The position numbers and the translations under genes are program-made. From a cyanobacterium endosymbiont of Rhopalodia gibba (GTDB taxonomy: Bacteria; Cyanobacteriota; Cyanobacteriia; Cyanobacteriales; Microcystaceae), in contig CP067995.1 in NCBI GenBank assembly GCA_045159875.1, positions 2,848,001 to 2,912,000 of the forward strand: a DNA stretch of 64,000 bases, read 5' to 3'. This document shows, one piece after another, positions 10,908 through 57,350 of the stretch; position 1 is the first letter of the stretch; every line of letters begins with the position of its first letter. The notes beneath the pieces are model-generated. The model searched no databases. It was not told the DNA's origin and was given only the letters and a program-made list of their open reading frames with translations.

Positions 10908-11180
10908 TAAGTAGGTAGACTTAAATTTAAATAAGTACAAAATAGAAAAGCACTTTTCTATTTTGTACTCACTAAATAAATGTTAGTCTACTTGAAAATT
11001 TAGCTAGTAGAATTAGAAGGGCAAAAACTATCTCCAGAATGAGAATAGAAACAGAAATATTATGTTTACCTGCAACAGGATGGAAAATTTTAGAAATTGC
11101 AGACTGGCTGAAAATTTTTAGAATATAATTAGGAAAACAATTTTCAAATAGATCCTACAAGGAACAGAATGATTGTACAA
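10908..11180 (+). mobile_element. IS630-family remnant (left end plus N-terminal HTH)
   Basis: starts TAAGTAGGTAG; reads EILCLPATGWKILEIADWLK; aligns by eye to the copy at 20111 (aaatttagcta...aattagaag.g.aaaaact; cagaat.agaa.a.aaacagaaat.ttatgttta). Confidence 0.7.
10934..10969. repeat. perfect inverted repeat, 17-bp arms, 2-nt spacer
   Basis: agtacaaaatagaaaag-ca-cttttctattttgtact. Confidence 0.95.
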
Positions 11181-11289
11181 TTTTTCGAGCTACCGTTTGT
11201 CTGAGAACTTGTTATTAAGATTTTTGTCTCTCCATTGAGAATCATATTGCTATTAAGAGAAAATAGACATATTAAGTGGTAGAGTGATC

Positions 11290-11690
11290 TCCCTGATAAC
11301 TATTTCTACAACATACACTCAAAGCATAAATTATGTATTTTTTGATCTAAGCTAATCGCTTCTTGATGTTTTGCTTTAATATCTGCTGTGGAGACATTAC
11401 TTTGGACAATTTGCCGTGAATACCGGCTGGTTACTTGTATTTTTTCCCATAATTTCTCTATTTAAGGACGATATCTTTAACAAATAGAATTGAGTTTGTT
11501 GATTTGCTCATTGCTGAGGTTAAGTTATTCCATTAATTTTTTTTGCCTCTTTTGGACTCGTCTTCCCAAGTTACTACATCTTCGGGCATGCTGTTGATGT
11601 TGACACTTAGAAATAAAACAATCCTGTTGTGGAAAATATTCTGCAAAAACGATGGCACGATGTAACAGAAGGGTGAACAAAGTTATTAGT
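11290..11690 (-). pseudogene. Spy/CpxP-family periplasmic chaperone pseudogene
   Basis: reads KKLME*LNLSNEQINKL...ADIKAKHQEAISLDQKIHNLCFECML*; lies downstream of the ECF sigma remnant. Confidence 0.7.
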
Positions 11691-11739
11691 CGCTTCAGGA
11701 AGTTAATACTGAGATATTAGGTTTCAGGATTTACTAACA

Positions 11740-12030
11740 ACAATCAATTAAAATACAATAGCTTATAAGAGTTTTCACCTAATGTCTTTCCTCGGGGGTT
11801 TGCAAATTTTCCAGCATAAAAGTTTACAGTTCGATTATATTTCTCCTATTTCTTAGAAGAGTTGTAACCAATGATAATTCTTACTAAGAGCTGCTAGTGA
11901 CCACTGCCCCAGGAATAAGCGAAACATCAAGTTAGATTTTCTAACCTTTAAGTACAAATTATGTAGATTAATTAACTTGCAAAAGAGAGTTTTTTAGGAT
12001 AGGCAAGAAACGGTACTTTTTAATAAATTA
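11740..12030 (-). pseudogene. small membrane protein (putative anti-sigma) pseudogene between the ECF sigma and Spy genes
   Basis: fragments LIPGAVVTS and IEL*TFMLENL; position within the three-gene operon. Confidence 0.5.
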
Positions 12031-12034
12031 GATA

Positions 12035-12560
12035 TTATAATACTCTTTTTTTTTCAAGAAACTTACGGACTTGATTGTGAGTATAAAATAAACGAGACTT
12101 TACGGTTCCTACAGGTAACTTCAAAATATTTATAACCTCTTTTTGGGATACACTGTCTAAGTGATGTAATACTAAAGCAAGATAATGTTTTAATCTGAAG
12201 GTTTGTAATCATTGTTAAGCTAAATCTCAAGAATGCATCCGCATTAAGTCAGAAGTATCTGATGACAGAGAAAGGGTCATATTTAAGATTGCGCTATCTT
12301 TAGTTAAAGAGAGACTTTAAGCTAACTTCCGTCTTTTATCAGTAGCTACGTTCCAGGTAATTCCGTACAGCTAAGTAGAAAAATCATTGAAGTTTCGTAG
12401 TCGAGGTAATGCTTTCCAAACTCGGAGAAAGACTTTCTGTACTATGTCTTTGTCTTTTGTATAAGCTTGGTTGTTTGCCAACATGATTGTGCTTTACTTC
12501 ACCAGTCAATTCACTTGTTTAGACTGAGAAGTTATTTGACAGTTTAATCAATGACGAAGA
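12035..12560 (-). pseudogene. sigH: ECF sigma factor (SigH-like) pseudogene
   Basis: reads IVQKVFLRVWKALPRLR..FST*LYGITWNVATDKRRKLA and LVLHHLDSVSQKEVINILKLPVGTVKSRLFY...RKFLEK (regions 2 and 4); internal stops. Confidence 0.8.
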
Positions 12561-13145
12561 AGAATAAATATCTTGCTAGCTTTTAAAAAGTTGTCATTGA
12601 AATGTCATATCCATGCCATTCTTCATATATCTATCCAATTTATATTGGATAGAAAAAAATGAATAAATAGGGGATAAACTGATGCAAGGAGATCAGTGAA
12701 GAAGTTTTGAACAATACCTTTCTCAAAAAGTCTCTTTTACTTTAACTTGCTGAGAATTTAATTGCGTTTTTATTGACTGTCATGACTGTTCTTTATTAGA
12801 GACTTTTTATAAAAAAATATCAAGTAGAATAGACTTAAGTAATTGTTCTTATTATAAGTATCAACCAATGTTAAATTGCACTGTAATGCAACAAGCCCAA
12901 TTAATCTTAATTGTCTTGGGTCTTTTATTGTATTCTACATCCCCTACTGCCTTACTAAGATTTGTCAAAACGACAGTTTCTTAAAAAAGACTTTCTTCCA
13001 AGAGAATGACTTATTAACATATAAATTTTGAGATTAGTAAAAGAGATATATTGATGGTGTGAGCAGTAAATAATTTAGGAAATTTACCTGTAGTTTTATC
13101 GAAAATTAAATCTTCATTTTACAAGGGAAATATTTAAAATCGTAA

Positions 13146-14276
13146 TTATTGATTAGCTATTAGTAAGCGAGAGGCTAAAAGTCTATCCATCCACATTTCT
13201 AAATAAGCGCGATTTTTTTTTTGTTGTTCAAATTCAATTGAATTTAAAGAATAAGGGGCTAATCCTTTAATAGCAGCTGTGATTACACAAAACATAGATT
13301 TTTGAAAAGTCTGAAAAATTTTTACTAATAAGTCGTCTTCTTGACGAATACTTTTTTGGTAAAATTCGTGAAGATAGTCTGGCAAATAATGTCTCATATC
13401 CTGCATCAATAGAGTAGGTGGAATTCCTGCACATCCTACACAGAGAGGATCAGCGTGTAAAGCCCCATAAGTAAATAAACCTTGTTCTTTGGGAATTTTA
13501 TAAGCTTGAGCGTTGTAAGAAATCGTTCCTAAAAAGGGAGTTCCTCGAAAGAAAATTGATTCTATATAAGGAATTGCTGTGTCAGCCAAAAAAGTTAGCC
13601 CAACAGATTTAGGAATAATATCGTAGCTTTTATTAAAAATAAAAACTTGATAAGCAATCGGTTTATTAGCATCTTTAACTAACCCATCTAAGATATGTTT
13701 AACTACTTGTGAAATTGATTTAATTTCTTCTTTGTCATAACGCTCAGAAAGAGACAAAAATAGATCAGCCATGACTCGCCAAAATTGCCCTAAACCACTA
13801 TAATAGGACATCATTCTTATTTGTTCAGGCAAAAATTCAGGAAAAATCTTATCTAAAGCTAACATTAAAAAGTTATTTTTAAACTTAGCTTTAATAATCT
13901 GTTTGACAGTTTCTTTAAACTCTGGAGTATCTAAGTATCTATCTAGTCCTCCTCCTCCATGCCACATCATAGACTTCACACAATATTCAGCATACTCAAA
14001 ATTAATACGGTCATGACCCCAATGGTCCAATAATTTTTGGAAGGAAACCTCACCATTAAAATATTTAAAAAAAGGAAATATTCTTAGGAATTGATTTTCA
14101 GCAATATAAATTAAATTACGGGAATAAGCATCTAATATCATTCCATAACTCTTTAAAATACCTACCACTTCAAGAACATTGTTAGGCGAGTTTTTGAGAA
14201 GTGCTTTTCCTTGTTCTAAACGATAGATGTACTCAGCAAGAGGATGGCACGAAGGTTTCAGTTGGATAGTAACCAT
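13146..14276 (-). CDS. cupB: CO2 hydration protein CupB (ChpX) of NDH-1(4)
   Basis: 376 aa; HWGHDRINFEYAEYC, MMWHGGGGLD, YYSGLGQFWRVM, GIPPTLLMQDMRHYLP, FQKSMFCV. Confidence 0.9.
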   Translation of the reverse strand: MVTIQLKPSCHPLAEYIYRLEQGKALLKNSPNNVLEVVGILKSYGMILDAYSRNLIYIAENQFLRIFPFFKYFNGEVSFQKLLDHWGHDRINFEYAEYCVKSMMWHGGGGLDRYLDTPEFKETVKQIIKAKFKNNFLMLALDKIFPEFLPEQIRMMSYYSGLGQFWRVMADLFLSLSERYDKEEIKSISQVVKHILDGLVKDANKPIAYQVFIFNKSYDIIPKSVGLTFLADTAIPYIESIFFRGTPFLGTISYNAQAYKIPKEQGLFTYGALHADPLCVGCAGIPPTLLMQDMRHYLPDYLHEFYQKSIRQEDDLLVKIFQTFQKSMFCVITAAIKGLAPYSLNSIEFEQQKKNRAYLEMWMDRLLASRLLIANQ

Positions 14277-14428
14277 AGTATATTTACTGAATTTTTGTTG
14301 ACAGTTTAATTGGATGATTGCAGAAAAGTGATTGCCTTCTGTAGTTTTACATGAAGGGATTTAGATACCCCACTTTGTGTGTTAATTTATCAATACTGAA
14401 TGGTACGCATTGCTATATGATGGAAAAC

Positions 14429-15127
14429 GTGATTTCCAAGCGCCACCATCGATTAAAACAAGTTCTAAAGCGACGGCCACCGAATTTGACCCTCCTGACT
14501 GAGGATGTCCATAAACCTCATAATCTATCTGTAATTATACGCACCTGCGACGCTGTAGGAATCTTTGAAGTTCATAGTGTTAATGTTACGGGAGAATTAC
14601 CCACTTTTTTTCAGGTATCTCAGGGCAGTGAGAAATAAATTTTTCTAAATATTCATCCTGAGCCAAAAACGACAATAAGTTACCTTAAAGACCAACAATT
14701 TCAGATATATGCAGCTCATTTTAGTTCCGAATCCTTAGACTATCGTCATATAGATTAGACTCAACCTAGCGCTATTATTTTGGGAGCAGAAAAATCGGGA
14801 GTGACTGAAGAAGCGGCTTAATTAGCCGACGAACATATTGTTATTCCAATGTTGGGAATGGTGCAATCTCTCAATGTATCTATGGCTACCGCAGTTATGT
14901 TATTTGAAGCGCAACGTCAACGGTTAGCAGCACAAATATATGATAATACTCGCCTAGATTCTGAGATATATAATCAAGTTTTATTTGAATGGAGTTATCC
15001 TGAAATAGCACGAGTTTGCCTCCAACAAGAAAAATCTTATCCCACTTTGGGAGAAAATGGAGAAATAAAAGAAAGCTTTTCTAAGTACTTAGACATCAAC
15101 AAACGATTCTATTTTAAAAACTATTAA
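14429..15127 (+). pseudogene. trmH: tRNA (guanosine-18 2'-O)-methyltransferase pseudogene
   Basis: one continuous frame with VHKPHNLS.I.RTCDAVG, LGAEKSGV and IPMLGMVQSLNVS motifs, broken by in-frame stops at 14636, 14756 and 14819. Confidence 0.92.
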
Positions 15128-15299
15128 GGAGGTAGGTAAACTGTCAACTCATACTGAGAAAGTCAAAAAGTTTTCTAAAAAAATAAGCTTAAACAAAACT
15201 TAAAAATAATGGAGACATCAGTTAGTGTAAATTTTACATTAAGTTTTCATCTGCTTGAATAAGATTTAGATTTTTATATTTAAATTTAACTTAGTCAAT

Positions 15300-15690
15300 T
15301 TCCTTGGTTTTTTGATTTTTAATAAAAAGTCTTCCCACTTTTAAACTATTTTGTTCTGAGCCTGATTCGATAGCAATGATAGAAACTATCGCCTATTCAT
15401 GTTAGAAGATGAACGCAAATCAGCTAATTCATCTTCTTTTATTCTTTACCATCTATTTTTAACTCTTGGGAATAAGAATATAACCACCACTTTTAAAACT
15501 AATCTATTTATTTCTAATAAATTAGATATATTTATTTTTTGATAAATTTGTTGTTTTTTAAATTTCTTCTTTGTATAAGAAAGAAGTGACAGCTTGTCAG
15601 AGATTAAAGCCTAATTTATCTAGATATTTTAAACAGGTTCTTTATAGCTAACTTTATATCAAATTTAAAATCAACAAAAGTCTAAGTACT
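15300..15690 (-). mobile_element. IS630-family transposase remnant
   Basis: minus strand fragments LKYLDKLGFNL*QAV (first catalytic Asp region), YSQELK and W*RIKEDELA. Confidence 0.55.
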
Positions 15691-15899
15691 TTGTCAAGCA
15701 AAATAACACTAAAACTTGAATAAAAATAGATTTTTTATTCATAAAAAACATCACCCAAAAGAATATAAGTTTTATTTATTAAAAGTCATAAAAAACTAGA
15801 TTAAGTTTTTTACCCTCTAGAGTAAATAGCTAAATAAAAAAAAATTTTTCTATATAAAGTAGAATTTAATGATAGGGCTAATTATTTATATAATCTTAG

Positions 15900-16295
15900 A
15901 GAAGTAAAATTATCTAAATAATTAGATTAGTGCTTTAAAAGAGAGAAAATTTTTTGCTCCCTTAACTGTTGACGAGAGTCGTAATGAGGATCTATTTGAA
16001 GTTTAATTATCTAAAGATTTAATTTCTTAGTTAGAACTAGAAAATATCATTATTTTGGAGAATGGCATTAATGCCATTCTTTATAAATGAAAAACCATTA
16101 GAGAAATGCTAGAAAATACTGGATGTGAACTATAGTATCTACCACCTGAATTTTCGGATTTAAACAAAATTTAGAATTGTTAATTTTTTGTGTAAACTTA
16201 GTTCAAATAAATATTTACTAAATTTAAAATAGTTAGAGAATGTGTAGACGCCACTTTCGAAAATTATCCTAAGTTTTTTGCAGCCTACAATATTA
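15900..16295 (+). mobile_element. IS630/Tc1 (ISY100-like) transposase C-terminal remnant
   Basis: ISALK..FFAPLTV....NEDLFEV, IIILEN..NA, IREMLENTGCEL*YLPPEFSDLNKI, RECVDATF. Confidence 0.8.
16059..16080. repeat. 22-bp perfect palindrome inside the IS remnant
   Basis: agaatggcatt|aatgccattct. Confidence 0.9.
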
Positions 16296-16504
16296 ATTTA
16301 CCACCTCTTAAAAGTAATTCCAATCACTAAAATCATGTACAGTCAATCTAAGTATAAGTTTTTTGCTGTTTTTGGAAATTTTTAAGTATAAATCTTAACT
16401 TATAGGGTTATTGATTAAGGTGTTATGCCTTTCCTAAAAATCTTTGTAACGGTTTTTATTTGGATAAATTAAAATTGAAAAGTAAAAAAATATTAGTTGT
16501 ACTA

Positions 16505-16883
16505 AAAAATAAAACCTTACTCAAAAGATATTCTTACTGAAATTATAGTAATTAACAATAAGACTAATTAATTAACACAACAACTAGCAGAATATTTTTA
16601 AGTAAATTAAAGTTTTATTATTCATATTTTTAGAGGCTATGAAGTAATGAAAAGTCTAGAATTATTCCCTTATAGGCAAAGAAAGTTTTCCTTAATTGAG
16701 ACAGAGCAGCTTATAAAAAAAAATAACAATGCTACTCTACAAGAACTAATCACTCACATACACAAAAAAATAAGTTTTACAATTGATAATCGCATCATCT
16801 ATCGTTTGATACACAAAATTTACTTAATCAGAAAAAACTTTATTTTTTATAATATCCAAACTTTTATACCTGACTTTAATTAA
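16505..16883 (+). mobile_element. IS630-family transposase N-terminal remnant
   Basis: KPYSKDI..QLAEYF*VN*SFI...NNNATLQEL...; nucleotide similarity to 37230-37380. Confidence 0.75.
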
Positions 16884-17731
16884 TCAAAATGAAGTTTATT
16901 TTTTATAAAATTGGTATTTTACCATAGCTAATAGGATACAGAAATACTCATGATATAACAATAGCTAAGGACTTATTTTATCATGGATAGTTGCCTGCCA
17001 AATATAATAATAAAATTAGATAATTAATAGAATTTATAGGAAAATAATTAGCATTTTTATTCCTTCTTTTTAATAATTTTTGCTATATAAAAAAATAAAG
17101 AATATTGAGAAATTCAAGGATTTCCTAGTTATATACACTTCAATAAAACGCTTTATTTAGTAACCTATAAAGACATGATTGGTTCGTTTGTCCACCGCGG
17201 GGAGAAGATTGATCTTCTCTTAGGCTTAACTTTCTTACTACTGCTTAATTAAATATTTTTTAATTTCTATTAAATGTAGAAATATAGAAATGCCTGTTGT
17301 TAGTGTTATTTTCGAATAGCCCGCGTACCTTTAGGAGAGTATTTAATACCGGTAGCTAGGAATATTGTTATCACCCCCAATATGAACTTAAAAATGGAAG
17401 TTACTGGAAAACTAAGACTCCTTGAAATAGATAGCAGTTAGAAATGTTCGTGTTAAGGTTAAACTGGTTTTAAAATTTAAGTAAGACAATTGGTTGTTGA
17501 GAATCTCAAAATTACTATTACCCTCCAAATTAGTTTCAAAAATCCCAAATTTTTGAGATCAAATTTTTATGATAATTATGTAGTTATTATTAAGTAGGCT
17601 GTTATTGAAATTAGAACTCAATGTTAATTATAATTAAGTCATGTGATTTCTTTAATTCTGTTTCTTATTCACGATTCTCAAATACAAAAAAATCAGATGT
17701 TTCACAAGTAGTAAATATAAAAACTACTATG

Positions 17732-19996: not shown

Positions 19997-20110
19997 TCTG
20001 TTTTATACAAAAATAATCTACAGAAAAATTTTATTGGCTATAGTTATCTAACTTATCTTAATTTATCTCATTTTTTGTCTAAAAAACAATACCTAATATT
20101 TATTATATAC

Positions 20111-21064
20111 TAAGTATATAAGCACAAATAAGTCTAAAATAAAAACGTAGTTTAAAAGAAACAATGACTAGATACTAGCCTGTCTAAAATTTAGCTAACA
20201 TAATTAGAAGAGTAAAAACTCTCAAAGTATACTCACGACCTCAAAATTTCTTTCAGAATCAGAACAAAAACAGAAATTTTATGTTTAAATCTAAGAAAAT
20301 AAAAAATAAAAAAAATCTTAGATTGAGCAAAACCATAAGAAGAACAGTTTCTGGACAGATGATTCAAGGAGAGAACTAATTATAGTTATCTTCAAAAAGT
20401 AAAAAAAATAACTTGTAACTAAGAAAATATAAAATTTTTTAAAAAGTACTTAAAAAAAGATAAAATAACTTATGAGAGCTAATGATTATCGAGATTTTTT
20501 TTAAAAAAAAGAGAAGTATAATTTACTTACAGTAAAATCTATATATTTTGAATAAAATAGCTGAAAATAGAGATAGATGAAATTCATCATACAGAATGTA
20601 TAAAGTTATTTGACATAGTAATTATAGAAAAATGACTAAATATGATAATAACATATGAACTGAATAAAAGTTTTAATTATATTTAAAGCAGTAAGTCGCT
20701 TAAAAAATTTAGATAAAGACGTGGATAAAGTTTAAAAAATTGGTAAAAATGAAGGAATAAATAAGGTAATTATTCTTGATTCTGATTCAAGATATATAAA
20801 TAGTTTACTTAAGAAGAAACTGAAAAAATGAGAAGAAAAAATATTTCATTTATTTTTTTACCAACTTCTACTATAAGAAGTTAATTTAATAAAAGGAAAA
20901 CGGACTACATTAAAAAAAAATTAAATCAATGGAAGAATGTTTAAAGATAAATACGATTTAGCTGAGATAGTCAAATAAGATGACATGAGTTAAACTTTAA
21001 TCACTTAAATATGGAAATACAAGATTGTTTGTTTTTTTATCGTTCATCTAAAGCTACCTATTTA
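20111..21064 (+). mobile_element. near full-length degraded IS630-family element
   Basis: 5' part similar to 10908-11180; C-terminal fragments VIILDS, LFFLPT, INGRMFKDKYDLAEIV; ends ...gctacctattta. Confidence 0.75.
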
Positions 21065-21081
21065 GGTAGCTTTAGATGAAC
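21042..21081. repeat. perfect inverted repeat, 19-bp arms, 2-nt spacer, at the IS right end
   Basis: gttcatctaaagctaccta-tt-taggtagctttagatgaac. Confidence 0.95.
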
Positions 21082-21154
21082 ATTATTATACTAGTGAATT
21101 ATGTCTTACACCTAAATTATATAATTCTTAAAAAGATTTTGAAAGAATTAGTGA

Positions 21155-21613: not shown

Positions 21614-22099
21614 TAGAGTTTCCTATAAAAAAAATATTTAGTATCAATATAATCGTTATTTGTGTCCTTCCAAAGTGGTCGTTTAAGAGAGTGATTTTAT
21701 TACTAGGTTTTATCTTGACTTTAGCATCAATGCTCTCTCAGTCAACACTTCACTAAATATAATATTCTTGTCAAGATTATTAAGTTTTTATTGAATCAGA
21801 ATAATTTTTCTATTACTAGAGTTAAAAAATCTAGTCATTCATTTTTATTAACAGAGTATTATTTTCAATAATATAATTGCTTTTACTGATTTAATAAAGA
21901 TTAACTCAAAAATCTAACTTAATCTTTCAACTAATTTAATTAAAACATATAATGCGCTTTTAGTAAAATTTATAAAAGTTTGAAAAAAAATTAATAATTA
22001 AGTCAGCTAATCGCTAATCATCTTAGCATTCTTCTTAAAATTAGAGATAACCAACATTCAACTTTATTTAAAAATATATGAAAGAAAACTTTCGGGAGT

Positions 22100-22780
22100 C
22101 TTGCCATGTTTCGACCCCAAAAGCTTTTGTCTTTCATTCTTACTCCTCACACATATCTGTCTTGACACAAGTTTTTCCTCAAAGTTCCTATAAAAGTGAC
22201 AGTTTTTTGATTATTACTGTTTAACAGATAACGTTCATAACAGAAACCTTACTTTGACGACCACATTTAGGCATAATTAAATTTTGCCTTTTTAAGCAGA
22301 ACATAAAACTTATCAATCTGTTGATAATCGATGCTCCATTCTGATGTCATAACTGAGATCTGGCAATATAAATCTATAATTTGAAATATAATAACATCCA
22401 TGATACATGCACTAAATCAACTATAATATCGACGATTATCACAATTACAGCCTTAAAGCCTTAAAAAAGGAGAGGTCGATGCTGATCGCAATCGTTCTGC
22501 CCTAATTTAGTCACGGGAGTATAAACTTCTCTTTTATCTAATTTACCAAGCCAGCTTAATCAATATTATCCGTAAATATCTTCATGTTATTAGTCATTGA
22601 GAAGAGAACTAGTCCAGAACCAAAAGAATTCAAAAATCTTGCTGATGGTTATAATGTCTTGTACTTTGTCCACAAATTATAACCATCTCGATTCATCTGT
22701 CACCTTCAAAGCTGTTGAACGGTTACAACTCCTTAATACTAATCTTGAAATTTTACTTGCTAAAGTTAATGTTTGAATTA
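22100..22780 (+). pseudogene. unidentified pseudogene
   Basis: GC-richer than flanks; protein-like fragments LKALKKGEVDADRNRSAL and TFKAVERLQLLNTNLEILL with stops. Confidence 0.4.
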
Positions 22781-23596: not shown

Positions 23597-23637
23597 TATT
23601 ATTCTACATTGCAAAAAAATTACAATGTAGAATAATA
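23597..23637. repeat. perfect inverted repeat, 15-bp arms, 11-nt spacer
   Basis: tattattctacattg-caaaaaaatta-caatgtagaataata. Confidence 0.9.
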
Positions 23638-28180: not shown

Positions 28181-28205
28181 TTTTTTAAATAAAGCGTACT
28201 TTAAA

Positions 28206-28309
28206 GTAGGAAATACTATCACAGAGCTAAATAGCGCTCTGTATCTCACTTTATCTGCTTCCGCAATAACTAATGTCCATAAGGACAATAAATCCAGATT
28301 AATCTCCAT
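28206..28309 (-). pseudogene. rnhB: ribonuclease HII N-terminal remnant
   Basis: MEINLDLLSLWTLVIAEADKVRYRALFSSVIV is a decayed 'IAGVDEVGRGALFGPVV' motif; directly downstream of rne. Confidence 0.7.
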
Positions 28310-28335: not shown

Positions 28336-28378
28336 ATACATAAGAAGAGATAAAGTTAAATTATCTCTTCTTATGTAT
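28336..28378. repeat. perfect inverted repeat, 18-bp arms, 7-nt spacer; possible rne terminator
   Basis: atacataagaagagataa-agttaaa-ttatctcttcttatgtat, about 23 nt past the rne stop. Confidence 0.92.
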
Positions 28379-32222: not shown

Positions 32223-32261
32223 AGATAGGAATATTTTTGTCAAGCAAAAATATTCCTATCT
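32223..32261. repeat. perfect inverted repeat, 17-bp arms, 5-nt spacer
   Basis: agataggaatatttttg-tcaag-caaaaatattcctatct. Confidence 0.95.
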
Positions 32262-32691: not shown

Positions 32692-32742
32692 TATCCAAAA
32701 ACGATGTAAATTTATTAGATAAATTTACATCGTTTTTGGATA
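32692..32742. repeat. perfect inverted repeat, 24-bp arms, 3-nt spacer
   Basis: tatccaaaaacgatgtaaatttat-tag-ataaatttacatcgtttttggata. Confidence 0.96.
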
Positions 32743-43292: not shown

Positions 43293-43360
43293 TTCCTATC
43301 CCTATATTTTTAGCAGTTTTAATGTTACAGGCAAGTCTATCTTGTATGTTTTTAGGATAA

Positions 43361-45080: not shown

Positions 45081-45273
45081 CTGTAATTTTCAGTGATAAA
45101 TGGGGCAGTTAACTAATTTACTTAACAAAATCAATGTTATATAAAACCAATATATCTCTTTAAAGGAAACGATTTTGGTTAACTTATCCTTGTTAAGAAT
45201 CTATTAGGTAAAATCTTTGTTTAAGTTAAAATACGGCATAAATTTTAGTAGAACCAATGAGTAAGATGAGCTA

Positions 45274-46035: not shown

Positions 46036-46265
46036 TCAAGTTTATTAACTATTAATGATTATGGTCTTAGCTAACTTAGCCTACTAAATCTGCATCTCAA
46101 AATTTCTTAATTTTTTCTTAACATTTTTACAAAAACGCTGTATGTAACTTCTTTAAAGAAAAGGGGATGAAAACTAGCTCTAGGACCTCTTGTATAGTAA
46201 GAGCTTTATTGATGTTCTAGGTTAATCCAAATAATCAAAAATTTAATCATCCTCAACGCGTCAGT

Positions 46266-47684: not shown

Positions 47685-47759
47685 ATTAACAAGATTTAGG
47701 TAATAGAATTAGCCGTCTTCAACCTCAATAGCTTTGATTAAACCACCACAATGGAAGAA

Positions 47760-48290
47760 TTAAGCGTGAGTAGAGGTGATAACTATATTTTCTTTTTGCT
47801 TTAAGTTGTACTCGAAAAAATCGAGTAGGATTGCCTGATGAACCTTTCCGATGGGATGAACCTTATCGGTTTTTGGAGAATAGCATCGTCCTTGTTTAAC
47901 TATATTCACAGGCACTAATCCAAAATCGACTCCTTCTTGCAAGACTAATTGTTCTATCGCAACAATTAAAGGAGAAGAATAAAGATAACGAGTAATATTC
48001 GGTTCATTATAAACTCTAAACTCAATTGGGTTAGGGACTTTATAATTAATTTCTTCAATTAATTCCCGTTTGAGTGCTTGTTCCGGGTTTTCTCCTAACT
48101 CTATATGACCCCCAAATAAACCCCAATGGTCGGGATAGGCGATCATAGATATATTATCACGCAACTGGAGCAAAAAATTATCCTCTTGGTAAACAATCGC
48201 CAAGGCGACCTGAAGAGGAGATTCAGCGTCTTTGTCCTCAAGGTTAGTTAGAGATAATTGAGGGGGAGACGAGTATTCATGCGATCGCAT
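47760..48290 (-). CDS. NUDIX hydrolase
   Basis: WGLFGGHIELGENPEQALKRELIEE Nudix box. Confidence 0.9.
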   Translation of the reverse strand: MRSHEYSSPPQLSLTNLEDKDAESPLQVALAIVYQEDNFLLQLRDNISMIAYPDHWGLFGGHIELGENPEQALKRELIEEINYKVPNPIEFRVYNEPNITRYLYSSPLIVAIEQLVLQEGVDFGLVPVNIVKQGRCYSPKTDKVHPIGKVHQAILLDFFEYNLKQKENIVITSTHA

Positions 48291-48313
48291 AGTTATTTTA
48301 GTGTAATTTTACT

Positions 48314-48853
48314 TTATTTTGAGTTACTTTTATGGGGTAGTAGAAGTTCATTAACATCCAAATCCGATGTTGATGTAGATTCAGGTTGAGAAGAAGACAA
48401 TGGTTGTGTGGGTTGATCGGGAGTTTTGGTTTGGAGCTCAAGTTGTTCTACCTCTAAAATATACAATTCGCCCAAATCTTGGCCACCAATAGAAATTGGC
48501 TGATACTCTACTCGTCCTTTAATGGTTATAGAATCTCCTGCTTTGGGAAGGGTGCCATTGGTCAGAACCCAAACTGTCCCCGTATCATCTTGGAGTTTAT
48601 AGGAACCATTATCCATAAAAGGCGCATGATCAACCACGGTTCCTTTAATATAATAAAATGCTTCTTGAGTTTGAGAGAGTTCTTTTGGTTGCTGATATTG
48701 GATGATTTCATTGATAGGAGTTACTGGTATTTGAGCTTTTTTTAAAAAATTAAGTCGATTACAACCAATAATTTCTCCTATCAGTAAGAATAGAAATCCA
48801 CCATGGCAAATTCTAATGTTTAAATCTTTCATGATGAGTGGGAGTAGCTTCAC
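48314..48853 (-). CDS. hypothetical OB-fold (lipo)protein
   Basis: signal with IIGC, then G.V...APF...SY.LQDDTG.VWV; ends LLPHK. Confidence 0.7.
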   Translation of the reverse strand: MKLLPLIMKDLNIRICHGGFLFLLIGEIIGCNRLNFLKKAQIPVTPINEIIQYQQPKELSQTQEAFYYIKGTVVDHAPFMDNGSYKLQDDTGTVWVLTNGTLPKAGDSITIKGRVEYQPISIGGQDLGELYILEVEQLELQTKTPDQPTQPLSSSQPESTSTSDLDVNELLLPHKSNSK

Positions 48854-48919
48854 TAAACTGAGATATTTTAACTGAAAGGATACCTTAAAATTTTTACTAG
48901 TTCCAAATTCATTAATTAT

Positions 48920-49795
48920 TTGTCGATGTCTTCTTCAACTTCTTTTATGTTAAATGGTAAGGCTTTAGCAAAAAAAATTCAGTGTAAACTCCAATCCTGG
49001 GTTCAAAAGCAACAACCCAGGATTGGCCGTCCTCCAGGGTTGGCAGTATTGATGGTAGGGGATGATCCGGCTAGTACTGTTTATGTCCATAACAAAGAGC
49101 GGGCTTGCGCTAAGGTAGGAATTGTTTCTTTTGGTCATCATTTCCCGGCTAATATCTCCCAAGACGAATTAGAAACCGTTATTGGACAACTAAATCAAGA
49201 TCCGCGAGTAGATGGGATATTAGTCCAGTTACCTTTGCCCGTCCATTTAGACGCAGTACAATTGTTATTGACTATTGACCCCGATAAAGATGTTGATGGT
49301 CTTCATCCGATGAATTTAGGACGGTTAATACGTGGTGAACCAGGGTTACGCAGTTGTACTCCCGCCGGGGTGATGCGTCTATTAGAAGAAAATCAGATCG
49401 AAGTGGCAGGTAAACACGCAGTGGTGGTAGGAAGAAGCATTTTAGTGGGCAAACCGTTAGGGTTAATGTTACTTGAAAAAAATGCTACAGTGACTATGGC
49501 TCATTCTCAAACCCGAGATTTACGAAATGTGACCCGTCAAGGGGATATTTTAATTGTTGCAGTAGGTAAACCAGAGTTCATTAACGCAGACATGGTTAAA
49601 CCTGGGGCAATAGTTATTGACGTAGGAATTAATCGTGTTGTTCGATCAGATGGAACTTCCCAACTGCTAGGGGATGTGGATTTCAACTCTGTGGCTGATA
49701 CAGCGCAATATGTTACGCCAGTTCCTGGGGGAGTAGGTCCGATGACTGTAGCGATGTTATTAAGCAATACGGTGTTAAGTTATCATCAACGGTAG
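48920..49795 (+). CDS. folD: methylenetetrahydrofolate dehydrogenase/cyclohydrolase
   Basis: [42 protein letters not shown]. Confidence 0.97.
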
Positions 49796-49800
49796 ATACT

Positions 49801-50321
49801 ATGAATGAATTTTTTTAGAATTATACCTGTGAGTTATCCCAAGGGAAAGCCTCGCAGGTGTCCATTATCCCTGAGCAGGATGATGTAGACTTCGATTTGA
49901 TGATTTAAAGAGCCTGTAGGGAATATTATTACCCAATATATATAGTATTAATACTGATGCCTACCGTACATTTACGAGTTTTGTAAGTGGAACCTATTTA
50001 TTTAGAGTCACATCGGTTAAAGAAAGTTGTAAGTTTGCTATTGATGTTAGCCTAGTAACAATTCTTTTTTCTCGTAATTATTCCCATCATCTTGAAAATA
50101 GTGTTGTTTGGAAAGTTGCGGTGATTCCCACCGCGAAGAGCATGGATTTTAATCTTTATATTGAAAATCCCAAGGACCAAGCAATTATTCAAGATAGTAG
50201 TTTCGAGCCTTCTGCAACTTGTGTGTTTACTAGTAATATTGAAGGGAACTATTCTTTTCTGCTTAAATTCCTTAAAGGAATGAGAGATTTTAATTTTCAA
50301 ATTGAGGGATTGATAGAATAA
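49801..50321 (+). pseudogene. hypothetical protein pseudogene (3' part still open at 50121-50321)
   Basis: VSIIPEQDDVDFDLMI* and ...VIPTAKSMDFNLYIENP... fragments with stops. Confidence 0.5.
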
Positions 50322-50346
50322 TTTAATGAAATTAAGTGTATCCACA

Positions 50347-50405
50347 AGTTATCATGAATCCCCAAATATTTAAAATAACTAAATATTTGGGGATTCATGA
50401 TAACT
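50347..50405. repeat. perfect inverted repeat, 26-bp arms, 7-nt spacer
   Basis: agttatcatgaatccccaaatattta-aaataac-taaatatttggggattcatgataact. Confidence 0.97.
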
Positions 50406-50537
50406 CTTTTTAAGATGATAAAATCAGAAAAAATTCAACTTATTATTTATATCTTCTACTAGTTTTAGAGGGTTTTTTGATCAAAAAATACAATAATTTT
50501 TCCAATTCAACACTTAATTATTTTACAAATTTTTAAC

Positions 50538-50589
50538 TACAATAAATAAGCTTTTTAGCTACTTTGTGCTAAAAAGCTTATTTATTGTA
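50538..50589. repeat. perfect inverted repeat, 22-bp arms, 8-nt spacer
   Basis: tacaataaataagctttttagc-tactttgt-gctaaaaagcttatttattgta. Confidence 0.96.
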
Positions 50590-51173
50590 CGTCTAATGTC
50601 TAGTTTCAGCTTTACTCAAAAATTATTTTATATTCCTCTTTAGTTTAATTTATTTTTTAAACTTAAATCTTCTTTATTTGTAAGTAAGATATATGTGTTT
50701 TTAATTTCAACCTAATAAATTTTTTTTCAACTAGCTTTTAAACTATTTCACCTCTCGTTTAAGAACTTTTCTTTGATTGTATCATTGAGTATTAATCTAT
50801 TTCATCTTATGAAATCTATCTGCTACTATTTCAACTTATCGCACTAGTTTATTTAAAGGTAAAAAGTAAGCAGTCAAACGAGATTTTATATCTAAAATAC
50901 CAGACCTCAATAAATGCTGCTTCTAGCATAGAATTGATGTTCTACTCTCTTCATAAATTTACTTGCCTCACAGTAACTTAAAGCAGAGAAATTCGCGCCG
51001 TATGCCTGTATAACTTGTGGAGAGAAGTGTCACAAAATTTTCTACAGTTGTTAGACTAATCTTGTTAGGTAGTTCATTAGTATCTTCCCTATCTGGAGTC
51101 TTTCTTTTAAAATTAGAGATCTAAACGCTATATATAGAGTTTACTTTAGTTAGTCTCGGATAAAGAAGGGATA

Positions 51174-54100
51174 ATGAACCATAAACAGGAATGGCAAGAT
51201 AGCGGTGTTGACGAACAATTGATTAATCTCAATGTGATAGCTTTGGAGGGGAATTCTCCTTTAGAGTATTTGTTTTATTCTGATGCACTTTCTAGACGTA
51301 ATGATGGTCGGGTCAATAATTCCATGTTAAAACGCTATGAACATACAGAACGAGGAGGCTGGTGGTGTTCGGGAATAGATTTATTGACAGGCGGCGAGGA
51401 TTTATGGGGGTGTTTCAAACCCAATTCCCCTCGAACCAGTTATGATAAGCACAAGTTAATCAAATATGAGCATCCCCCTAAAACATCTACAGGGGTTTTT
51501 GCCTTGCGGGTTCCATTGCATCTATGGCGACAATTAGCCCAACGCCACCATCAAGATCTTACTCCAGAAGAGATTAATAATCAACTCCCAGATTTAGGTT
51601 TTTGGCAATGGGTGATAAATCATCCTTCGATTCCCCTTTGTATTACTGAAGGGGCTAAAAAAGCAGGGGCGTTATTAACAGCAGGATATGCTACAATCGC
51701 CCTTCCAGGAATTAATAGTGGCTATCGAACCCCTCGAGATAAGTTGGGCAACCGAATCGGAAAGTCTCATCTCATTCCCCAACTCGAAAAACTAGCGATT
51801 TCAGGGAGGAAAATTTATATTGCTTTTGATCAAGATAGTAAACCAAGTTCTATTAAAGAAGTGAATTCTGCTATTAGAAAATTGGGAAGTTTATTCACTC
51901 AAGCAGGATGTCAAGTTAACGTTATTGTTTGGCTACCGAAATGGGGAAAAGGAGTAGATGATTTTTTAGCGCATAAAGGACTCAAAACTTTTAATGAAAC
52001 TTACGAAAAAGCCTTATCTCTAGAAACTTGGAAAGCACAAAGCTTAAGACAACTAACTTATCCTTCTGATCTTGAAGTCAGTACTCGATATTTAGGAGAT
52101 TTACCCATTCCTACAACTGCTAAATTAGTAGGAATAAAATCTCCAATAGGGACTGGAAAAACTAAGGCTCTTGAAAAGATTGTTGAACAGGCAATCACTT
52201 CTCAACAAAAAATATTAGTAATTGGACATAGAGTTAAGTTAGTTGAGCAACTTTGTCAACGATTTAAAATTCCTTATTTAACAGAAATCGAAGGAAATAA
52301 TGTTAGAAATATAAAAGGATGTGGACTTTGCATTGATTCTCTTCATCCTAATTCTTCATTTAAATTTAATCCTAGTGATTGGACAGATAGTCTAATTATT
52401 ATCGATGAAATTGAACAGGTTTTATGGCATGGATTAAATTCAGATACTTGCAAGGAAAATAGAGTTTCTATCCTAAGATCTTTTAAGAAGTTACTTGAAC
52501 AAAGTTTATATTTTAAAGGAAGAATAGTTATTGCTGATGCAGACTTAAGTGACATTTCTCTTGACTATTTAATTTCTTTGATAGGAATTAAATTAAAACC
52601 CTTTATTGTAATCAACAATTGGAAATCTAACAATAAAGAAGCATGGGGAGTATATAATTATCCAGAAACTACCCCCCAAGAGTGGCTCAAAGATTTAATG
52701 CAACATATCCAGCAAGGGGGTAAACCTTTTGTTTGTCTATCCGCTCAGAAATTAACTAGTAAGTGGGGAACACAAACTCTAGAATTCTACTTAAAAAAAC
52801 GATTCCCAGAAGTGAAAATTCTAAGGATTGATTCTGAATCGTTAACTGACCCTAATCATAACGCTTACCAATCTATCAACCACCTTAATCAAATACTATT
52901 AAATTACGATATCATTTTGGCTAGTCCTTCCATTGAGACGGGAGTAAGTATCGATATTAAAGATCATTTTACCTCTGTTTGGGGATTAGCTCAAGGGATA
53001 CAAACTGCTACCTCTGTCTGTCAATCACTAGGACGAATTCGTGACAACATTCCTCGTTATCTTTGGTGTGCTTCCTATGGGTTTAATAAAGTGGGAAATG
53101 GTTCTACTTCAATTCCTAATTTGTTAACTTCTAGTAATCGCGTTACTCAGTTAAATATTAAGTTATTACAACAATCTGACCTAGAAGCCTTAGATGATAT
53201 AGATATAGAATTTCAAGCAGAATCTTTACTTTGTTGGGCAAAAATGGCGGTTCGCGTTAATGTTTCAATGATTCATTATCGAGAGTCTATATTAAGAAAT
53301 ATTACTGACCAAAATCATCCAGTTCTTCGTAAGAATAAAGTTTTCAAAATTCAAGATATAAAAAAATATAAAAAATATTCGTATGATAGTAAAAATTCTT
53401 GTCAATTAATGAAAGCAATTGAAAGTATTAGAGAACAAAATTATCAAGAAGAATGCCTAATGGTTGCCCAAGGCAAGGAGATTACTGATCAACAATATAA
53501 AGCGTTAAATAAGAGGTTAGTTAAAACTGTAGTTGAACGGCATAACATCAAAAAATATAATTTACAAAGACGCTATTGTATTGAAGTAACTCCTCAATTA
53601 GTTGCCTTAGATAATGAAGGATGGTACGACAGGATTCGTCTCCATTATTTCTTAACTTTAGGACGTTCTTATTTAGCAGATAGAGACACTATTCTTGCTA
53701 AAAAATTCATAGAAAAAGGACAGGGTAGTCTTTTTGTACCTGATTTTAATAGTTCTCAATTAGGGGGAATTATTGGGACAATGGAGGTATTGGGAATTTC
53801 GGTGTTACTCATGAACCATAAGCGAAAGTTAAAACCTACAGATGAAGACTTGCAAGCGATGGCAAGAATTGCTATTAAAAACCGCGCTGAAATCAAAACT
53901 ATTATGGGAATTGGTATTGCCAAAAATTCTAGTCCTATCACGATTATACGGCGGTTGTTGGATAAAATTGGCTATGGATTAACTTGTATTGGTTCTCAAA
54001 AAGTTAACAAAAAACGAGTGCGGGTGTATCAAGTTGTTCTTCCTAATGATGCTAGGCAAAAGGTGTTTAGACAATGGTGGATAAGAGATGGAAAATCCCC

Positions 54101-54209
54101 AGGCAGTTCTGAACCTTGGTTTGAAGAATATACAAATATTAAGTCAGAAATAACTAAAATTCAGCAAGAAGAAAATAAAAATTATATTCAATTAAGTTTA
54201 GAATTTTAG
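51174..54209 (+). CDS. DUF3854 TOPRIM-like primase + superfamily-2 helicase (CyRepA1-type replication protein)
   Basis: KYEHPP, ITEGAKKA, IAFDQD, KGVDD; Walker A SPIGTGKT, Walker B IIIDEIEQ, SPSIETGVSID, QSLGRIR. Confidence 0.9.
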   Translation: MNHKQEWQDSGVDEQLINLNVIALEGNSPLEYLFYSDALSRRNDGRVNNSMLKRYEHTERGGWWCSGIDLLTGGEDLWGCFKPNSPRTSYDKHKLIKYEHPPKTSTGVFALRVPLHLWRQLAQRHHQDLTPEEINNQLPDLGFWQWVINHPSIPLCITEGAKKAGALLTAGYATIALPGINSGYRTPRDKLGNRIGKSHLIPQLEKLAISGRKIYIAFDQDSKPSSIKEVNSAIRKLGSLFTQAGCQVNVIVWLPKWGKGVDDFLAHKGLKTFNETYEKALSLETWKAQSLRQLTYPSDLEVSTRYLGDLPIPTTAKLVGIKSPIGTGKTKALEKIVEQAITSQQKILVIGHRVKLVEQLCQRFKIPYLTEIEGNNVRNIKGCGLCIDSLHPNSSFKFNPSDWTDSLIIIDEIEQVLWHGLNSDTCKENRVSILRSFKKLLEQSLYFKGRIVIADADLSDISLDYLISLIGIKLKPFIVINNWKSNNKEAWGVYNYPETTPQEWLKDLMQHIQQGGKPFVCLSAQKLTSKWGTQTLEFYLKKRFPEVKILRIDSESLTDPNHNAYQSINHLNQILLNYDIILASPSIETGVSIDIKDHFTSVWGLAQGIQTATSVCQSLGRIRDNIPRYLWCASYGFNKVGNGSTSIPNLLTSSNRVTQLNIKLLQQSDLEALDDIDIEFQAESLLCWAKMAVRVNVSMIHYRESILRNITDQNHPVLRKNKVFKIQDIKKYKKYSYDSKNSCQLMKAIESIREQNYQEECLMVAQGKEITDQQYKALNKRLVKTVVERHNIKKYNLQRRYCIEVTPQLVALDNEGWYDRIRLHYFLTLGRSYLADRDTILAKKFIEKGQGSLFVPDFNSSQLGGIIGTMEVLGISVLLMNHKRKLKPTDEDLQAMARIAIKNRAEIKTIMGIGIAKNSSPITIIRRLLDKIGYGLTCIGSQKVNKKRVRVYQVVLPNDARQKVFRQWWIRDGKSPGSSEPWFEEYTNIKSEITKIQQEENKNYIQLSLEF

Positions 54210-54387
54210 AAATTTACTTCAATCCTTGATCTTAAAAACTATATTTTGTAGAGTGGATTAGATGAAGGTCAGATTTTGAATAAAAAAATCGTAAGTTCTT
54301 ATCTACGTCGTAATCCCTATGATGGGAAATCAATCCGAGTATACCGAAAGAATTCAATACGAGTGATAAATTACACCATATCTTATG

Positions 54388-54437
54388 CTAATACATCCGT
54401 AGATACCTTGTATACAAGGTATCTACGGATGTATTAG
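54388..54437. repeat. 50-bp perfect palindrome with no spacer
   Basis: ctaatacatccgtagataccttgta|tacaaggtatctacggatgtattag. Confidence 0.97.
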
Positions 54438-54550
54438 GCAAAAAGGGATACTAAGATGCAGATTTGTATGTAGATGATAGCTAGAAATTTTTAGGAGAAA
54501 CTTAATAGAATTGTTGATTAAATTTTCCCTAAATTCTAGAATAAAAAACT

Positions 54551-55906
54551 TTAACGCATGGTCACAAATTCTTCGGCAGAAGTGGGATGAATACCAACAG
54601 TAGCGTCAAAATCAGCCTTTTTAGCTCCCATTTTTACTGCAATCGCTACTCCTTGAATAATTTCGGCAGCATGATCTCCTACCATATGTGCGCCTAAAAC
54701 CCGATCACTTTCTTGATGAACAACAAGTTTCATCAAAGTTTTTTCCTGTTTGTCAGGCAATACATAATACATGGGACGAAACTCGCTACTATATACTTTG
54801 ATAGCATCTTTCCCATATTGTTCTTTAGCTTTTGCTTCAGTTAGTCCTACTGTAGCAGCTTCCGGAGTACTAAACACGGCAGATGGAACATTTTCATAAC
54901 TCATCAGACACGATTTTCCCCCAAATTTAGTGTCAGCGAAGGCGCGGCTTTCACTAATAGCGACGGGAGTTAGATTAATACGATCTGTACAGTCTCCGAC
55001 TGCATATATATTCGGTTCTGCTGTTTGATTATACTTGTCGACAACGATCACTCCATTTTGCACTTTAACCTCTGTATTTTCTAATCCTAAGTTCTCTAAG
55101 TTAGGAATACGCCCAGTAGCAGCCAACCCAATGATATCGGCTAACACCATGTCATTATTGCTATCCCCTTCTAGAGAAATTGTTAAACCTTGGTTTGTTT
55201 TTTTGACTTCAGAGATGGAAGAGTTCTTTAGGATGCGAATACCATGTTCTTCCATAGACTCTTGGATTGTGGTTCGGATATCGTCATCAAACCCCTTCAA
55301 GATTTTATCGCGGCGAATAATCTGGATAACATCTGACCCTAGTCCATGCATAATACAGGCAAATTCTACCCCAATGTAACCCCCTCCCCAAATGACGACG
55401 CGCTTTGGTTGTTCGGGTAGTTCAAACATAGCATCAGAGGTCACTAAATATTCTTTTCCTGGAATGTTAGGTTTAATGGGACGTCCCCCCACAGCAATTA
55501 AAACTTTATCAGTTGTAACTTTTTTGCCATCTCCGACTTCTACGGTATGGGGATCGAGTAATTTACCATGGGTACGATACAGTTGAACATTGGATTTATC
55601 CAACATTCTTTGGTAAATACCATTAAGACGACCAACTTCCCTATTGATAGCGGCTATCATTTTAGGCCAGTCGAGGATACTTTTAACCGGACTCCATCCG
55701 TATCCTTGGGATTCTTCCAAGACTCTAGGGACGTGAGAAGTATAAACCATTAACTTTTTGGGAATACATCCTCTATTAACACAGGTTCCCCCTAGACGAT
55801 TAAATTCTGCTAACCCGACTTTAGTTCCATATTCGGCAGCGCGTCTAGCAGCAGCAATTCCTCCTGAACCACCACCAATAACAAATAAATCAAAATCAAA
55901 ATTCAT
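54551..55906 (-). CDS. gor: glutathione-disulfide reductase
   Basis: GGGSGG, GGTCVNRGCIPKK, GGGYIGVE, GIHPTSAEEFVTMR. Confidence 0.97.
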   Translation of the reverse strand: MNFDFDLFVIGGGSGGIAAARRAAEYGTKVGLAEFNRLGGTCVNRGCIPKKLMVYTSHVPRVLEESQGYGWSPVKSILDWPKMIAAINREVGRLNGIYQRMLDKSNVQLYRTHGKLLDPHTVEVGDGKKVTTDKVLIAVGGRPIKPNIPGKEYLVTSDAMFELPEQPKRVVIWGGGYIGVEFACIMHGLGSDVIQIIRRDKILKGFDDDIRTTIQESMEEHGIRILKNSSISEVKKTNQGLTISLEGDSNNDMVLADIIGLAATGRIPNLENLGLENTEVKVQNGVIVVDKYNQTAEPNIYAVGDCTDRINLTPVAISESRAFADTKFGGKSCLMSYENVPSAVFSTPEAATVGLTEAKAKEQYGKDAIKVYSSEFRPMYYVLPDKQEKTLMKLVVHQESDRVLGAHMVGDHAAEIIQGVAIAVKMGAKKADFDATVGIHPTSAEEFVTMR

Positions 55907-56119
55907 AATTCTACTAAATCTCCTAAATTATAGGTTTAAACTTTTCCCTTGTGCTTTTTTGTACTATTTTTTATTTTAAGACAGTTAGCTATTCAAACAC
56001 AATCACTACTTCTAATTGCATATTAGACCTTGTTCGTCAGTTTTTCTAACTCCTGGAGATATTGTTACTTTTTTTCCCAATTTAAACTCTGTAACAGATA
56101 ATAGCAATATTTTCCAAAT

Positions 56120-57350
56120 ATACTTTGTTTTCAGATATATAAAAAATTATAAATTTCCAAGGTTTGTTCCACAGATTTAACTTTCAAAATTGACAAAATT
56201 ATTAATAATAAATTTAATTAATTAAGGTAATTTTTTTTCAAACTTTAGACTTTTGAGAGAGTTTATATAGGTTAAAACCGCACAATTTTTTTCTATTGTA
56301 TTTAATGTTAAATTACTAACAAGAACAATAATTTTATTATTGTTTAGTCAATAATGATACTTAATACTTTCAGTTTATATGATAGGTAAATTCTATAGTT
56401 TAAGAATATTGGCAATTTTTTGAAAGGAAGTTATAACCTCAACGTTTTATAACTAGCAAATAAATTAAATTTTAAAAAAAGTAATAATTTAATTGATCTA
56501 CCTTATAGATCAATTAAATTATTTTTAATGATAATATATGTTTTTTAATTTTAATAAGCTATGATTAAAGGCATTAAAGTTATAATTAGCTATTAAGATA
56601 ACAGTTAAGCAATAGCCAATTAACTATAGAAGAATAACGCTTAAAAAAATGGTTTTCTTCAAAAAAAGTATAAAAATATTGTATTTAACCTATTTTAACC
56701 ATTAAATATAATTGACCTGTTGATTTAATCTGTTAAGTTAAAAGTTGTTAATGTTAATATTTATTTTTAATTGTATTTATTATATAAATCTATAAATCAC
56801 AACTGCAATACAATCCCAAAAATATAGCTAAATTAATCACAAAGACTACTAACATCCATCCCAAAAAATTTTTTAACTCCCTTAAAGAAAGTATCCTAAA
56901 ATTATTATCAATAGAAGCTTTAAAAACTAATTTAACCCTAATAAGACTTAATCAAAATTCTTATTAAGAATGATGGTTCAGGGTTATCCCGTCATAATTT
57001 AGTTATTCCAGAAGGATTAGTTACTGTTTGAAGGTTAATGGCTAAGAGATTAAAAGCAGAAACTTATCGTCAATTTGTAGCCTTACTGGAAGTTAATGGA
57101 GCTCTTAAAACTAGTTTAAAAAACATAGTTATTGAAAATAATTTTTAAGTTAACATGGGAACCATATCTGGTATTTCTGGATTGTTGGACTATCTAATTA
57201 TTTCTAGTTATTTCCCTTTAACTATTACGCTATTAGTTTTAATATAAACTACTCAGAAGTTCTTGTGTAAGAAACTAGAAAGGAAGTTGATAGTAGTACT
57301 ATTTGACGTGGTCGATTTATTTAGAAATGTCAAGCTACATGAGGGATAGT
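56120..57350 (+). pseudogene. dacB: D-Ala-D-Ala carboxypeptidase/endopeptidase (PBP4, peptidase S13) pseudogene
   Basis: VCSTDLTFKIDKIIN at the 5' end; DGSGLSRHNLV.PEGLV, VNGALK, decayed KTG motif 'NMGTISGISGL..YL'. Confidence 0.8.
56483..56523. repeat. perfect inverted repeat, 18-bp arms, 5-nt spacer, inside the dacB pseudogene
   Basis: aataatttaattgatcta-cctta-tagatcaattaaattatt. Confidence 0.93.

Follow-up and report, generated by a model that had tools for sequence, protein, structure and literature searches.

Hundreds of long, perfect hairpins of mutually unrelated sequence are dispersed through the chromosome of the cyanobacterial endosymbiont of Rhopalodia gibba, and they are real, lineage-specific and largely non-coding marks of a mutational process, most of them neutral. 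They are probably produced by short-range template switching during DNA synthesis, with one arm serving as the template for the other. The stretch analyzed here, hereafter the window, comprises 64,000 nucleotides of contig CP067995.1 (positions 2,848,001 to 2,912,000). An initial annotation of the window had listed ten inverted repeats and a 22-bp palindrome, and we recovered all 11 sites with unchanged starts, arms and spacers (Table 1). The chromosome (3.06 Mb, 34% G+C) is accompanied by a second contig of 6.5 kb; this genome is denoted G000, and other genomes bear analogous numbers. Its size, G+C content, low coding density, small plasmid and loss of dnaA agree with the description of diatom spheroid-body endosymbionts (10.64898/2026.03.19.712447).

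A scan of the whole chromosome for perfect repeats with arms of at least 15 bp and loops of at most 12 nt returned 350 instances, whereas three locally shuffled versions contained 1, 0 and 0, which excludes chance. Folding of seven sites gave z-scores between -6.7 and -13.9 for all seven. The load amounts to 120 per Mb, with arms of 15 to 38 bp, and arms reach at least 20 bp in 155 repeats of this genome. Five repeats satisfying the same thresholds lie on the small contig (G000:C2; 6,464 bp), which at arms of at least 12 bp carries seven perfect repeats, one of 35 bp, and is denser than the chromosome. The arms were said not to form a single family of repetitive extragenic palindromes (REP) or miniature inverted-repeat transposable elements (MITE). 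Consistently with this, a 90% match elsewhere was found for 46 of 225 arms of at least 18 bp and for 52 of 225 matched non-coding controls. With the gene set called in this analysis (1,620 genes, 52% coding, short genes being missed), 349 of 367 hairpins with loops of at most 15 nt are non-coding, 8 fall within called open reading frames (ORFs) and 10 lie across gene ends. The annotated absence of hairpins from intact coding sequences therefore stands for the window, whose sites avoid ORFs of at least 90 aa (50347 abuts a 97-aa ORF), but not for the genome, given those 8 of 367. Away from gene ends, hairpin number tracks non-coding length and is equal across all four gene orientations; divergent and convergent gene pairs do not differ in density (2.2 to 2.5 per 10 kb).

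Genes bear a trace of the same kind. Arms of at least 13 bp occurred nine times in 1,290 genes, against 0, 0 and 1 in synonymous shuffles. Long ORFs contained 96 arms of at least 10 bp versus 42.8 in shuffled sequence in genomes of the diatom-symbiont type and 29 versus 9.2 in the 1.4- to 1.5-Mb type, whereas the others showed 13 versus 13.9. A stem in uvrA that measures 8 bp in G000 has grown to 18 bp in G006 and to 22 bp in G001, and several codons are rewritten in the latter two. This uvrA hairpin (G001, L033 near 13740, and its G006 orthologue) alters several amino acids immediately N-terminal to the first zinc-binding cysteines. A hairpin with 17-bp arms (G000:C1:633075-633110) overlaps the last codons of polA.

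The excess recurs in reduced relatives. Within the genus, four reduced genomes (G001, G003, G004 and G006), sampled over 200 to 400 kb, yielded 232 to 437 hairpins per Mb of non-coding DNA, compared with 245 in G000, and two genomes of 4.8 to 5.2 Mb yielded 0 and 31. Still higher densities, 550 and 419 per Mb non-coding, were recorded in 200 kb each of G031 and G032, which have 1.4 to 1.5 Mb, belong to another genus of the same family and, judging from their size and gene losses, likely represent the UCYN-A/nitroplast group. The diatom spheroid-body and UCYN-A symbioses are treated as independent (10.64898/2026.03.19.712447). Pooling eight other genomes gave 11 hairpins with arms of at least 15 bp against 45.1 expected and none with arms of at least 20 bp against 19.6 expected, a count that excludes G326 and G014, in which 42 kb and 32 kb, respectively, contained 0 hairpins. 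Likewise, repeats with arms of at least 10 bp and spacers of at most 8 nt cover 6.3 to 11.5 bp per kb in seven reduced genomes and 0 to 3.4 in eight others. The published coverage has a bacterial mean of 3.14 and reaches 9.7 to 12.0 in the top phyla (PMC13155455), but our count includes the spacer, so the comparison may be inexact. An excess at this level is absent from relatives with genomes of free-living size, as the attribution of the process to a reduced genome would have it.

The behavior of individual hairpins points to copying between arms. At 50538, contigs of run X5, which come from another study and a near-identical strain, have arms identical to those in the window and the 8-nt spacer reverse-complemented. 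Runs X6 and X7 share the X5-type spacer, but there the right arm is 8 bp shorter and the perfect core only 5 bp. A near-inversion of one spacer also separates G031 from G032. A spanning sister alignment was available for 176 of 258 tested hairpins, and 24 of these 176 sites are perfect (at least 15 bp) in two genomes despite flanks only about 75% alike; several of them carry mirrored substitutions or indels in both arms, as do sites compared between G031 and G032. The spacer flip, the 8-bp arm repair and the mirrored sister changes indicate that arms are likely homogenized by replication template switching and, together with the genome-wide excess, support the ongoing fold-back process proposed in the initial annotation. 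Dispersed repeats hold 25 of 368 hairpins, and a perfect arm of at least 12 bp recurs in just 3 of 121 other copies.

The deficit of mismatched stems increases with stem length. The ratio of perfect to one-mismatch stems was 184:93 at 15 to 19 bp, 114:30 at 20 to 24 bp and 38:2 at 25 bp or more, and a planted substitution remains detectable in 44%, 69% and 76% of stems in these classes, respectively. Six other reduced genomes show a mismatch deficit with stem length in the same direction. In long stems, especially those of at least 25 bp, correction thus seems to be quicker than decay, by a steady-state argument whose outcome recent birth combined with fast deletion could mimic. The origin of the hairpins is less uniform than their description as written de novo had implied: about a quarter of the polarizable sites (15 of 62) fit it, but most were imperfect ancestral stems on which both arms have been extended and made perfect time and again. 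Accordingly, pairing is derived in 224 of 1,001 polarized stem pairs, and the ancestrally paired share is 78%, whereas simulations of one de novo copy per site gave 54%. Asymmetry in arm identity is weak (23 of 176 sites versus 15.1 expected). Net length change centers near zero, with 83 of the 176 sites within 2 bp, and hence scars of deletion repair, another suggested origin, are not the rule. No leading/lagging bias emerged from 12 left-new versus 11 right-new sites; the dnaA pseudogene and the cumulative GC skew, which is noisy and without a clear slope, provided no fork direction.

According to the mechanism we propose, a replicative or repair polymerase would copy one arm from the other, turning chance or ancestral imperfect stems into perfect and longer ones. 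Such switching would sometimes flip the spacer and would re-perfect stems after new mutations. Long stems might outpace decay through this correction, a feedback that would make them self-maintaining. The majority of hairpins would have no function, and those at gene 3′ ends, about one in ten, probably act as terminators or mRNA end stems. Both intra- and inter-strand template switching are known to homogenize arms with indels, and spacer inversion marks the inter-strand type (PMC8604942); arm homogenization by template switching is also described in PMC6357072 and PMC5941160.

The repair defects suspected at the outset do not explain the load. The reduced genomes tested have retained SbcCD, RecJ and MutS intact, so their loss is not the cause of the hairpins. 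As rejected candidates, sbcD and the two recJ genes are present in 21 of 21 genomes, and mutS and uvrD in five of five, as are sbcC and polA. An xseA match above the cut-off was obtained in 8 of 21 genomes; the gene is missing in five reduced genomes and G005, and was not found in G031 to G033, G076 and G588. It is also missing in the hairpin-poor G007, and xseA loss is therefore insufficient as a cause. The DEDD exonuclease family PF00929, matched in G002 alone among five genomes, was uninformative. Losses common to both reduced groups are rnhB, dnaA, xseA and one 490-aa RecQ paralogue. The dnaA gene is present in G002 and G007, a pseudogene in G000 (with many stops, at G000:C1:2619293-2619965) and not found in G001, G031 and G032; it falls below the cut-off in 24 of 151 genomes of the order. 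An intact 1,011-aa plasmid-type replication protein of the CyRepA1 family (NF042913, E 2e-162) is encoded at 51174-54209 (+) of the window, in a region conserved in the four sisters, and is a candidate for DnaA-independent initiation.

RNase HII, encoded by rnhB, is the most lineage-specific candidate among these shared losses; that its loss is the causal step is a tentative proposal that we regard as doubtful. The enzyme is present in 399 of 401 genomes of the class and 75 of 89 of the family. The 14 family genomes without rnhB comprise five of the diatom-symbiont type, G031 to G033 and six others, mostly drafts; PF01351 was unmatched in G000, G001, G003, G004, G006 and G031 to G033. In G002 and G007 the gene order is rne-rnhB-pheA, and a rne-rnhB dicistron has been described (PMC10989914). 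At the corresponding place in the window, a remnant of rnhB (Table 1) outscored 99.6% of 2,000 randomly drawn non-coding windows in G000, and its counterparts in G001 and G006 outscored every one; it was seen solely in this targeted test, as genome-wide tblastn gave no rnhB remnant. The absence of RNase HII from these symbionts has been published, in the accessible text without comment on mutation, and RNase HI is reported present (PMC12903740). In yeast, loss of RNase H2 raises quasi-palindrome mutagenesis (PMC3820800), and a class-2 RNase H is likewise missing in both hairpin-rich lineages; the yeast effect, however, was seen in a reporter and needs high transcription, whereas the symbiont hairpins lack visible transcription dependence. 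Nor does the accessible part of PMC5676920 report quasi-palindrome mutagenesis in bacterial rnhB mutants, unlike the yeast case. Two side observations concern these genes. Neither rnhB nor dnaA is present in G490 (3.8 Mb in a single contig), a possible third reduced lineage; within its genus, G508 has a dnaA scrap alone and G523 keeps dnaA. In G004, a 12-residue tandem repeat has expanded near the C terminus of RNase E (L066 region).

Several observations weigh against template switching as the source of the hairpins. No individual mutation event was observed, and the direction of the changes at 50538 is based on three runs plus a single sister that aligns weakly. The control pool is small (eight genomes with 167 kb of non-coding DNA) and has a higher content of G+C and of functional DNA. 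Only 71 of 143 sites were polarizable, these being the best conserved. One-sided change is weak: 9 of 35 sites versus 4.2 by chance, with a summed asymmetry of p = 0.07, and 7 of 28 one-sided sites versus 124 of 234 in simulated single copies. With no clear restriction of the changes to one arm, the mechanism has to invoke more than one event at each site. Moreover, cruciform cleavage with recombination would give a similar homogenization pattern. That alternative, in which SbcCD or a resolvase cuts extruded hairpins or cruciforms and RecA-dependent repair or gap filling copies an arm, draws on the intact sbcC, sbcD, ruvB, polA and uvrD, on a correction that grows with stem length and on change in both arms. 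We nevertheless consider it improbable, for sites such as 10934 and 16059 began from seeds of at most about 5 bp, which could not extrude, and net length change centers on zero. Cleavage is also expected to delete palindromes rather than extend them. Selection for RNA structure, namely, terminators or 3′ stabilizers that make up for the loss of transcription control where dead DNA abounds, would account for the 29 hairpins found within 25 bp of gene 3′ ends versus 8.2 expected, the 10 more across gene ends, the depletion near 5′ ends (2 versus 8.3), the imperfect stems kept at 3′ ends at 28336 and 54388 and the ancestral pairing of 78% of stem pairs. Yet the distribution is uniform beyond 25 bp, in all four gene orientations, and T-rich flanks revealed no T-tract excess beside hairpins (40 of 734 versus 34.2 expected). 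Arms are G+C-poor (23% versus 28% in non-coding DNA), and mismatches in stems (G.T 34, A.C 27) look like DNA transitions with no wobble bias, a G.U bias being absent also near 3′ ends (13 versus 8). A terminator scan of 49500-57000 reported none of the four hairpins there, and the hairpins do not show the G+C-rich stem plus U-tract of intrinsic terminators; Rfam at gathering score gave three window matches (two tRNAs and Cyano-1), none overlapping a hairpin. Selection on RNA would not need 25 unbroken Watson-Crick pairs either, and we hold this explanation to be very improbable as a general one. As a source of new terminators, the role also envisaged in the initial annotation, the hairpins qualify in at most about a tenth of cases (some 39 of 367 lie just past a gene 3′ end or across a gene end), and the others are evenly spread. 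Finally, amplification or assembly fold-back, or a mobile palindromic family, is scarcely credible. Sequence support consists of assembled contigs of runs, not raw reads, and two of the hairpins are members of one decayed repeat family, whose stem is ancestral. Nonetheless, X5 contigs span 23597, 28336, 50538 and 56483, the pattern is present in seven separate assemblies, and orthologous positions with mirrored changes in separate assemblies mean that amplification cannot be the source. The avoidance of genes and an arm sharing no higher than chance argue against a mobile family as well. RNA contigs of run X2 break at 50538, where a second allele and a cDNA artifact are indistinguishable, and this site in X2 was not used as evidence.

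A further question is why these genomes in particular carry the excess. The fixation rate is elevated in both reduced lineages, likely owing to small population size together with a shared change in replication or repair. One scenario, possible but on the whole unlikely, is that the spheroid-body and UCYN-A/nitroplast lineages converged on a template-switch mutator state because they lost RNase HII, either by itself or together with DnaA. Against the RNase HII step stand the E. coli and Bacillus subtilis data, in which rnhB loss is reported to be non-mutagenic and to give GC-to-AT transitions, respectively (PMC5676920), and the equal density across gene orientations where the yeast effect needs high transcription. 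In addition, two lineages amount to no more than two events, in which drift and the loss of dnaA are confounding factors. The association itself is divided, for G031 and G032 are hairpin-rich, but the near-complete G076 (5.5 Mb in two contigs, free-living size), which has no rnhB match, displays no clear excess in 160 kb: of its six repeats of at least 15 bp, none reaches 20 bp and four come from one repeated family shared with G070. An ordinary rate whose products persist through drift in 1.4 Mb of unselected DNA is compatible with the mechanism and rivals the mutator step; we view it as a serious possibility, short of probable. It gains from G076, from E. coli, which also over-represents and maintains perfect repeats (PMC5941160), and from the sampled genomes, which include no reduced A+T-rich symbiont retaining rnhB. 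Conversely, G031 and G032 are about 76% coding and have the highest density per non-coding base, the excess in coding DNA is confined to reduced genomes, and the 155 arms of at least 20 bp contrast with none of that length in E. coli non-coding DNA (PMC5941160). Three small genomes that keep rnhB have no hairpins, but at 47 to 49% G+C and with an unclear lifestyle. The rest of the probability we assign to other shared changes. If the RNase HII scenario were true, the mutator state would yield self-maintaining hairpins, rewrite several codons at once and leave a readable signature of early organelle evolution.

The window sites illustrate the range of histories (Table 1). The left and right arms of 10934 are 94% and 56% identical to the G003/G006 orthologues. 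The palindrome at 16059 was created by a 9-bp insertion, visible as a 9-bp gap in the G001 and G003 alignments, and four paralogous copies elsewhere in the genome lack it. At 21042 the sister alignment shows extension from a short ancestral stem. Three sisters have an imperfect stem at 28336, which sits in a terminator position and is spanned by an X5 contig with one difference across 2.4 kb. No orthologue spanning 32692 was found. An RNA contig of run X2, from the same sample, spans 50347 without difference. All four sisters carry an imperfect stem with different letters at 54388, and X5 and X6 contigs both end at 54427, as expected where a perfect 50-bp palindrome folds the assembly graph. 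Decay of the surroundings is evident in trmH, broken into two ORFs (14351-15127), and in the frameshifted PPC-domain gene (about 49768-50318); a Cyano-1 RNA persists at 22080-22156 (-) within an otherwise decayed stretch.

Table 1. Hairpin sites of the window and the neighboring rnhB remnant
Position	Strand	Feature	Arm (bp)	Loop (nt)	Context
10934..10969	.	perfect inverted repeat	17	2	de novo type: left arm ancestral, right arm replaced
16059..16080	.	22-bp palindrome	11	0	inside decayed dispersed repeat
21042..21081	.	perfect inverted repeat	19	2	74 bp 3′ of stop of DUF2141 gene
23597..23637	.	perfect inverted repeat	15	11	non-coding desert; X5 contig spans site
28199..28309	-	rnhB remnant			N-terminal catalytic region, directly 3′ of rne, just beyond hairpin 28336
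28336..28378	.	perfect inverted repeat	18	7	24 bp 3′ of rne stop, before dead rnhB
32223..32261	.	perfect inverted repeat	17	5	left side expanded, right arm ancestral (versus G001)
32692..32742	.	perfect inverted repeat	24	3	
50347..50405	.	perfect inverted repeat	26	7	just 3′ of broken PPC-domain gene
50538..50589	.	perfect inverted repeat	22	8	edge of ISL3 remnant
54388..54437	.	50-bp perfect palindrome	25	0	between convergent CyRepA1 and gor genes
56483..56523	.	perfect inverted repeat	18	5	extended from short ancestral stem; X5 contig spans site

The template-switch mechanism is already known; the interest lies in its convergent appearance in a second lineage and in a candidate cause that can be tested. 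In the literature searched, which did not extend to most subscription journals and supplements, we found no description of a palindrome or hairpin load in these symbionts, nor of a genome-wide, self-maintaining template-switch load in two young nitrogen-fixing endosymbioses. The hairpins are a natural record of a mutation class usually studied in reporters, and the many sister genomes allow events to be dated. The shared losses of RNase HII, DnaA and the RecQ paralogue make the suppression of template switching in cyanobacteria experimentally testable. Compared with known systems, the symbiont hairpins resemble intrinsic terminators and REP/MITE elements in being intergenic stem-loops with a subset at gene 3′ ends, but they differ in lacking a consensus, T-tract, G+C enrichment or wobble pairs and in being uniform in dead DNA. 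They share with quasi-palindrome mutation by template switching the perfecting of imperfect ancestors and the multi-base and indel changes that match the other arm (PMC8604942, PMC5941160 and PMC6357072), as well as spacer inversion, short spacers and amino acid changes within genes. In E. coli, non-coding arms all stay below 20 bp (PMC5941160), whereas the endosymbiont extends this range to 38 bp. The nearest natural parallel is provided by the mitochondrial palindromes of Nematomorpha, which likewise comprise many unique perfect repeats with imperfect ones scarce, are gained and lost between species in a host-contained genome and have been proposed to undergo arm conversion; those palindromes reach 284 bp and lie inside genes, whereas the symbiont hairpins are shorter and 95% non-coding (PMC6649704).

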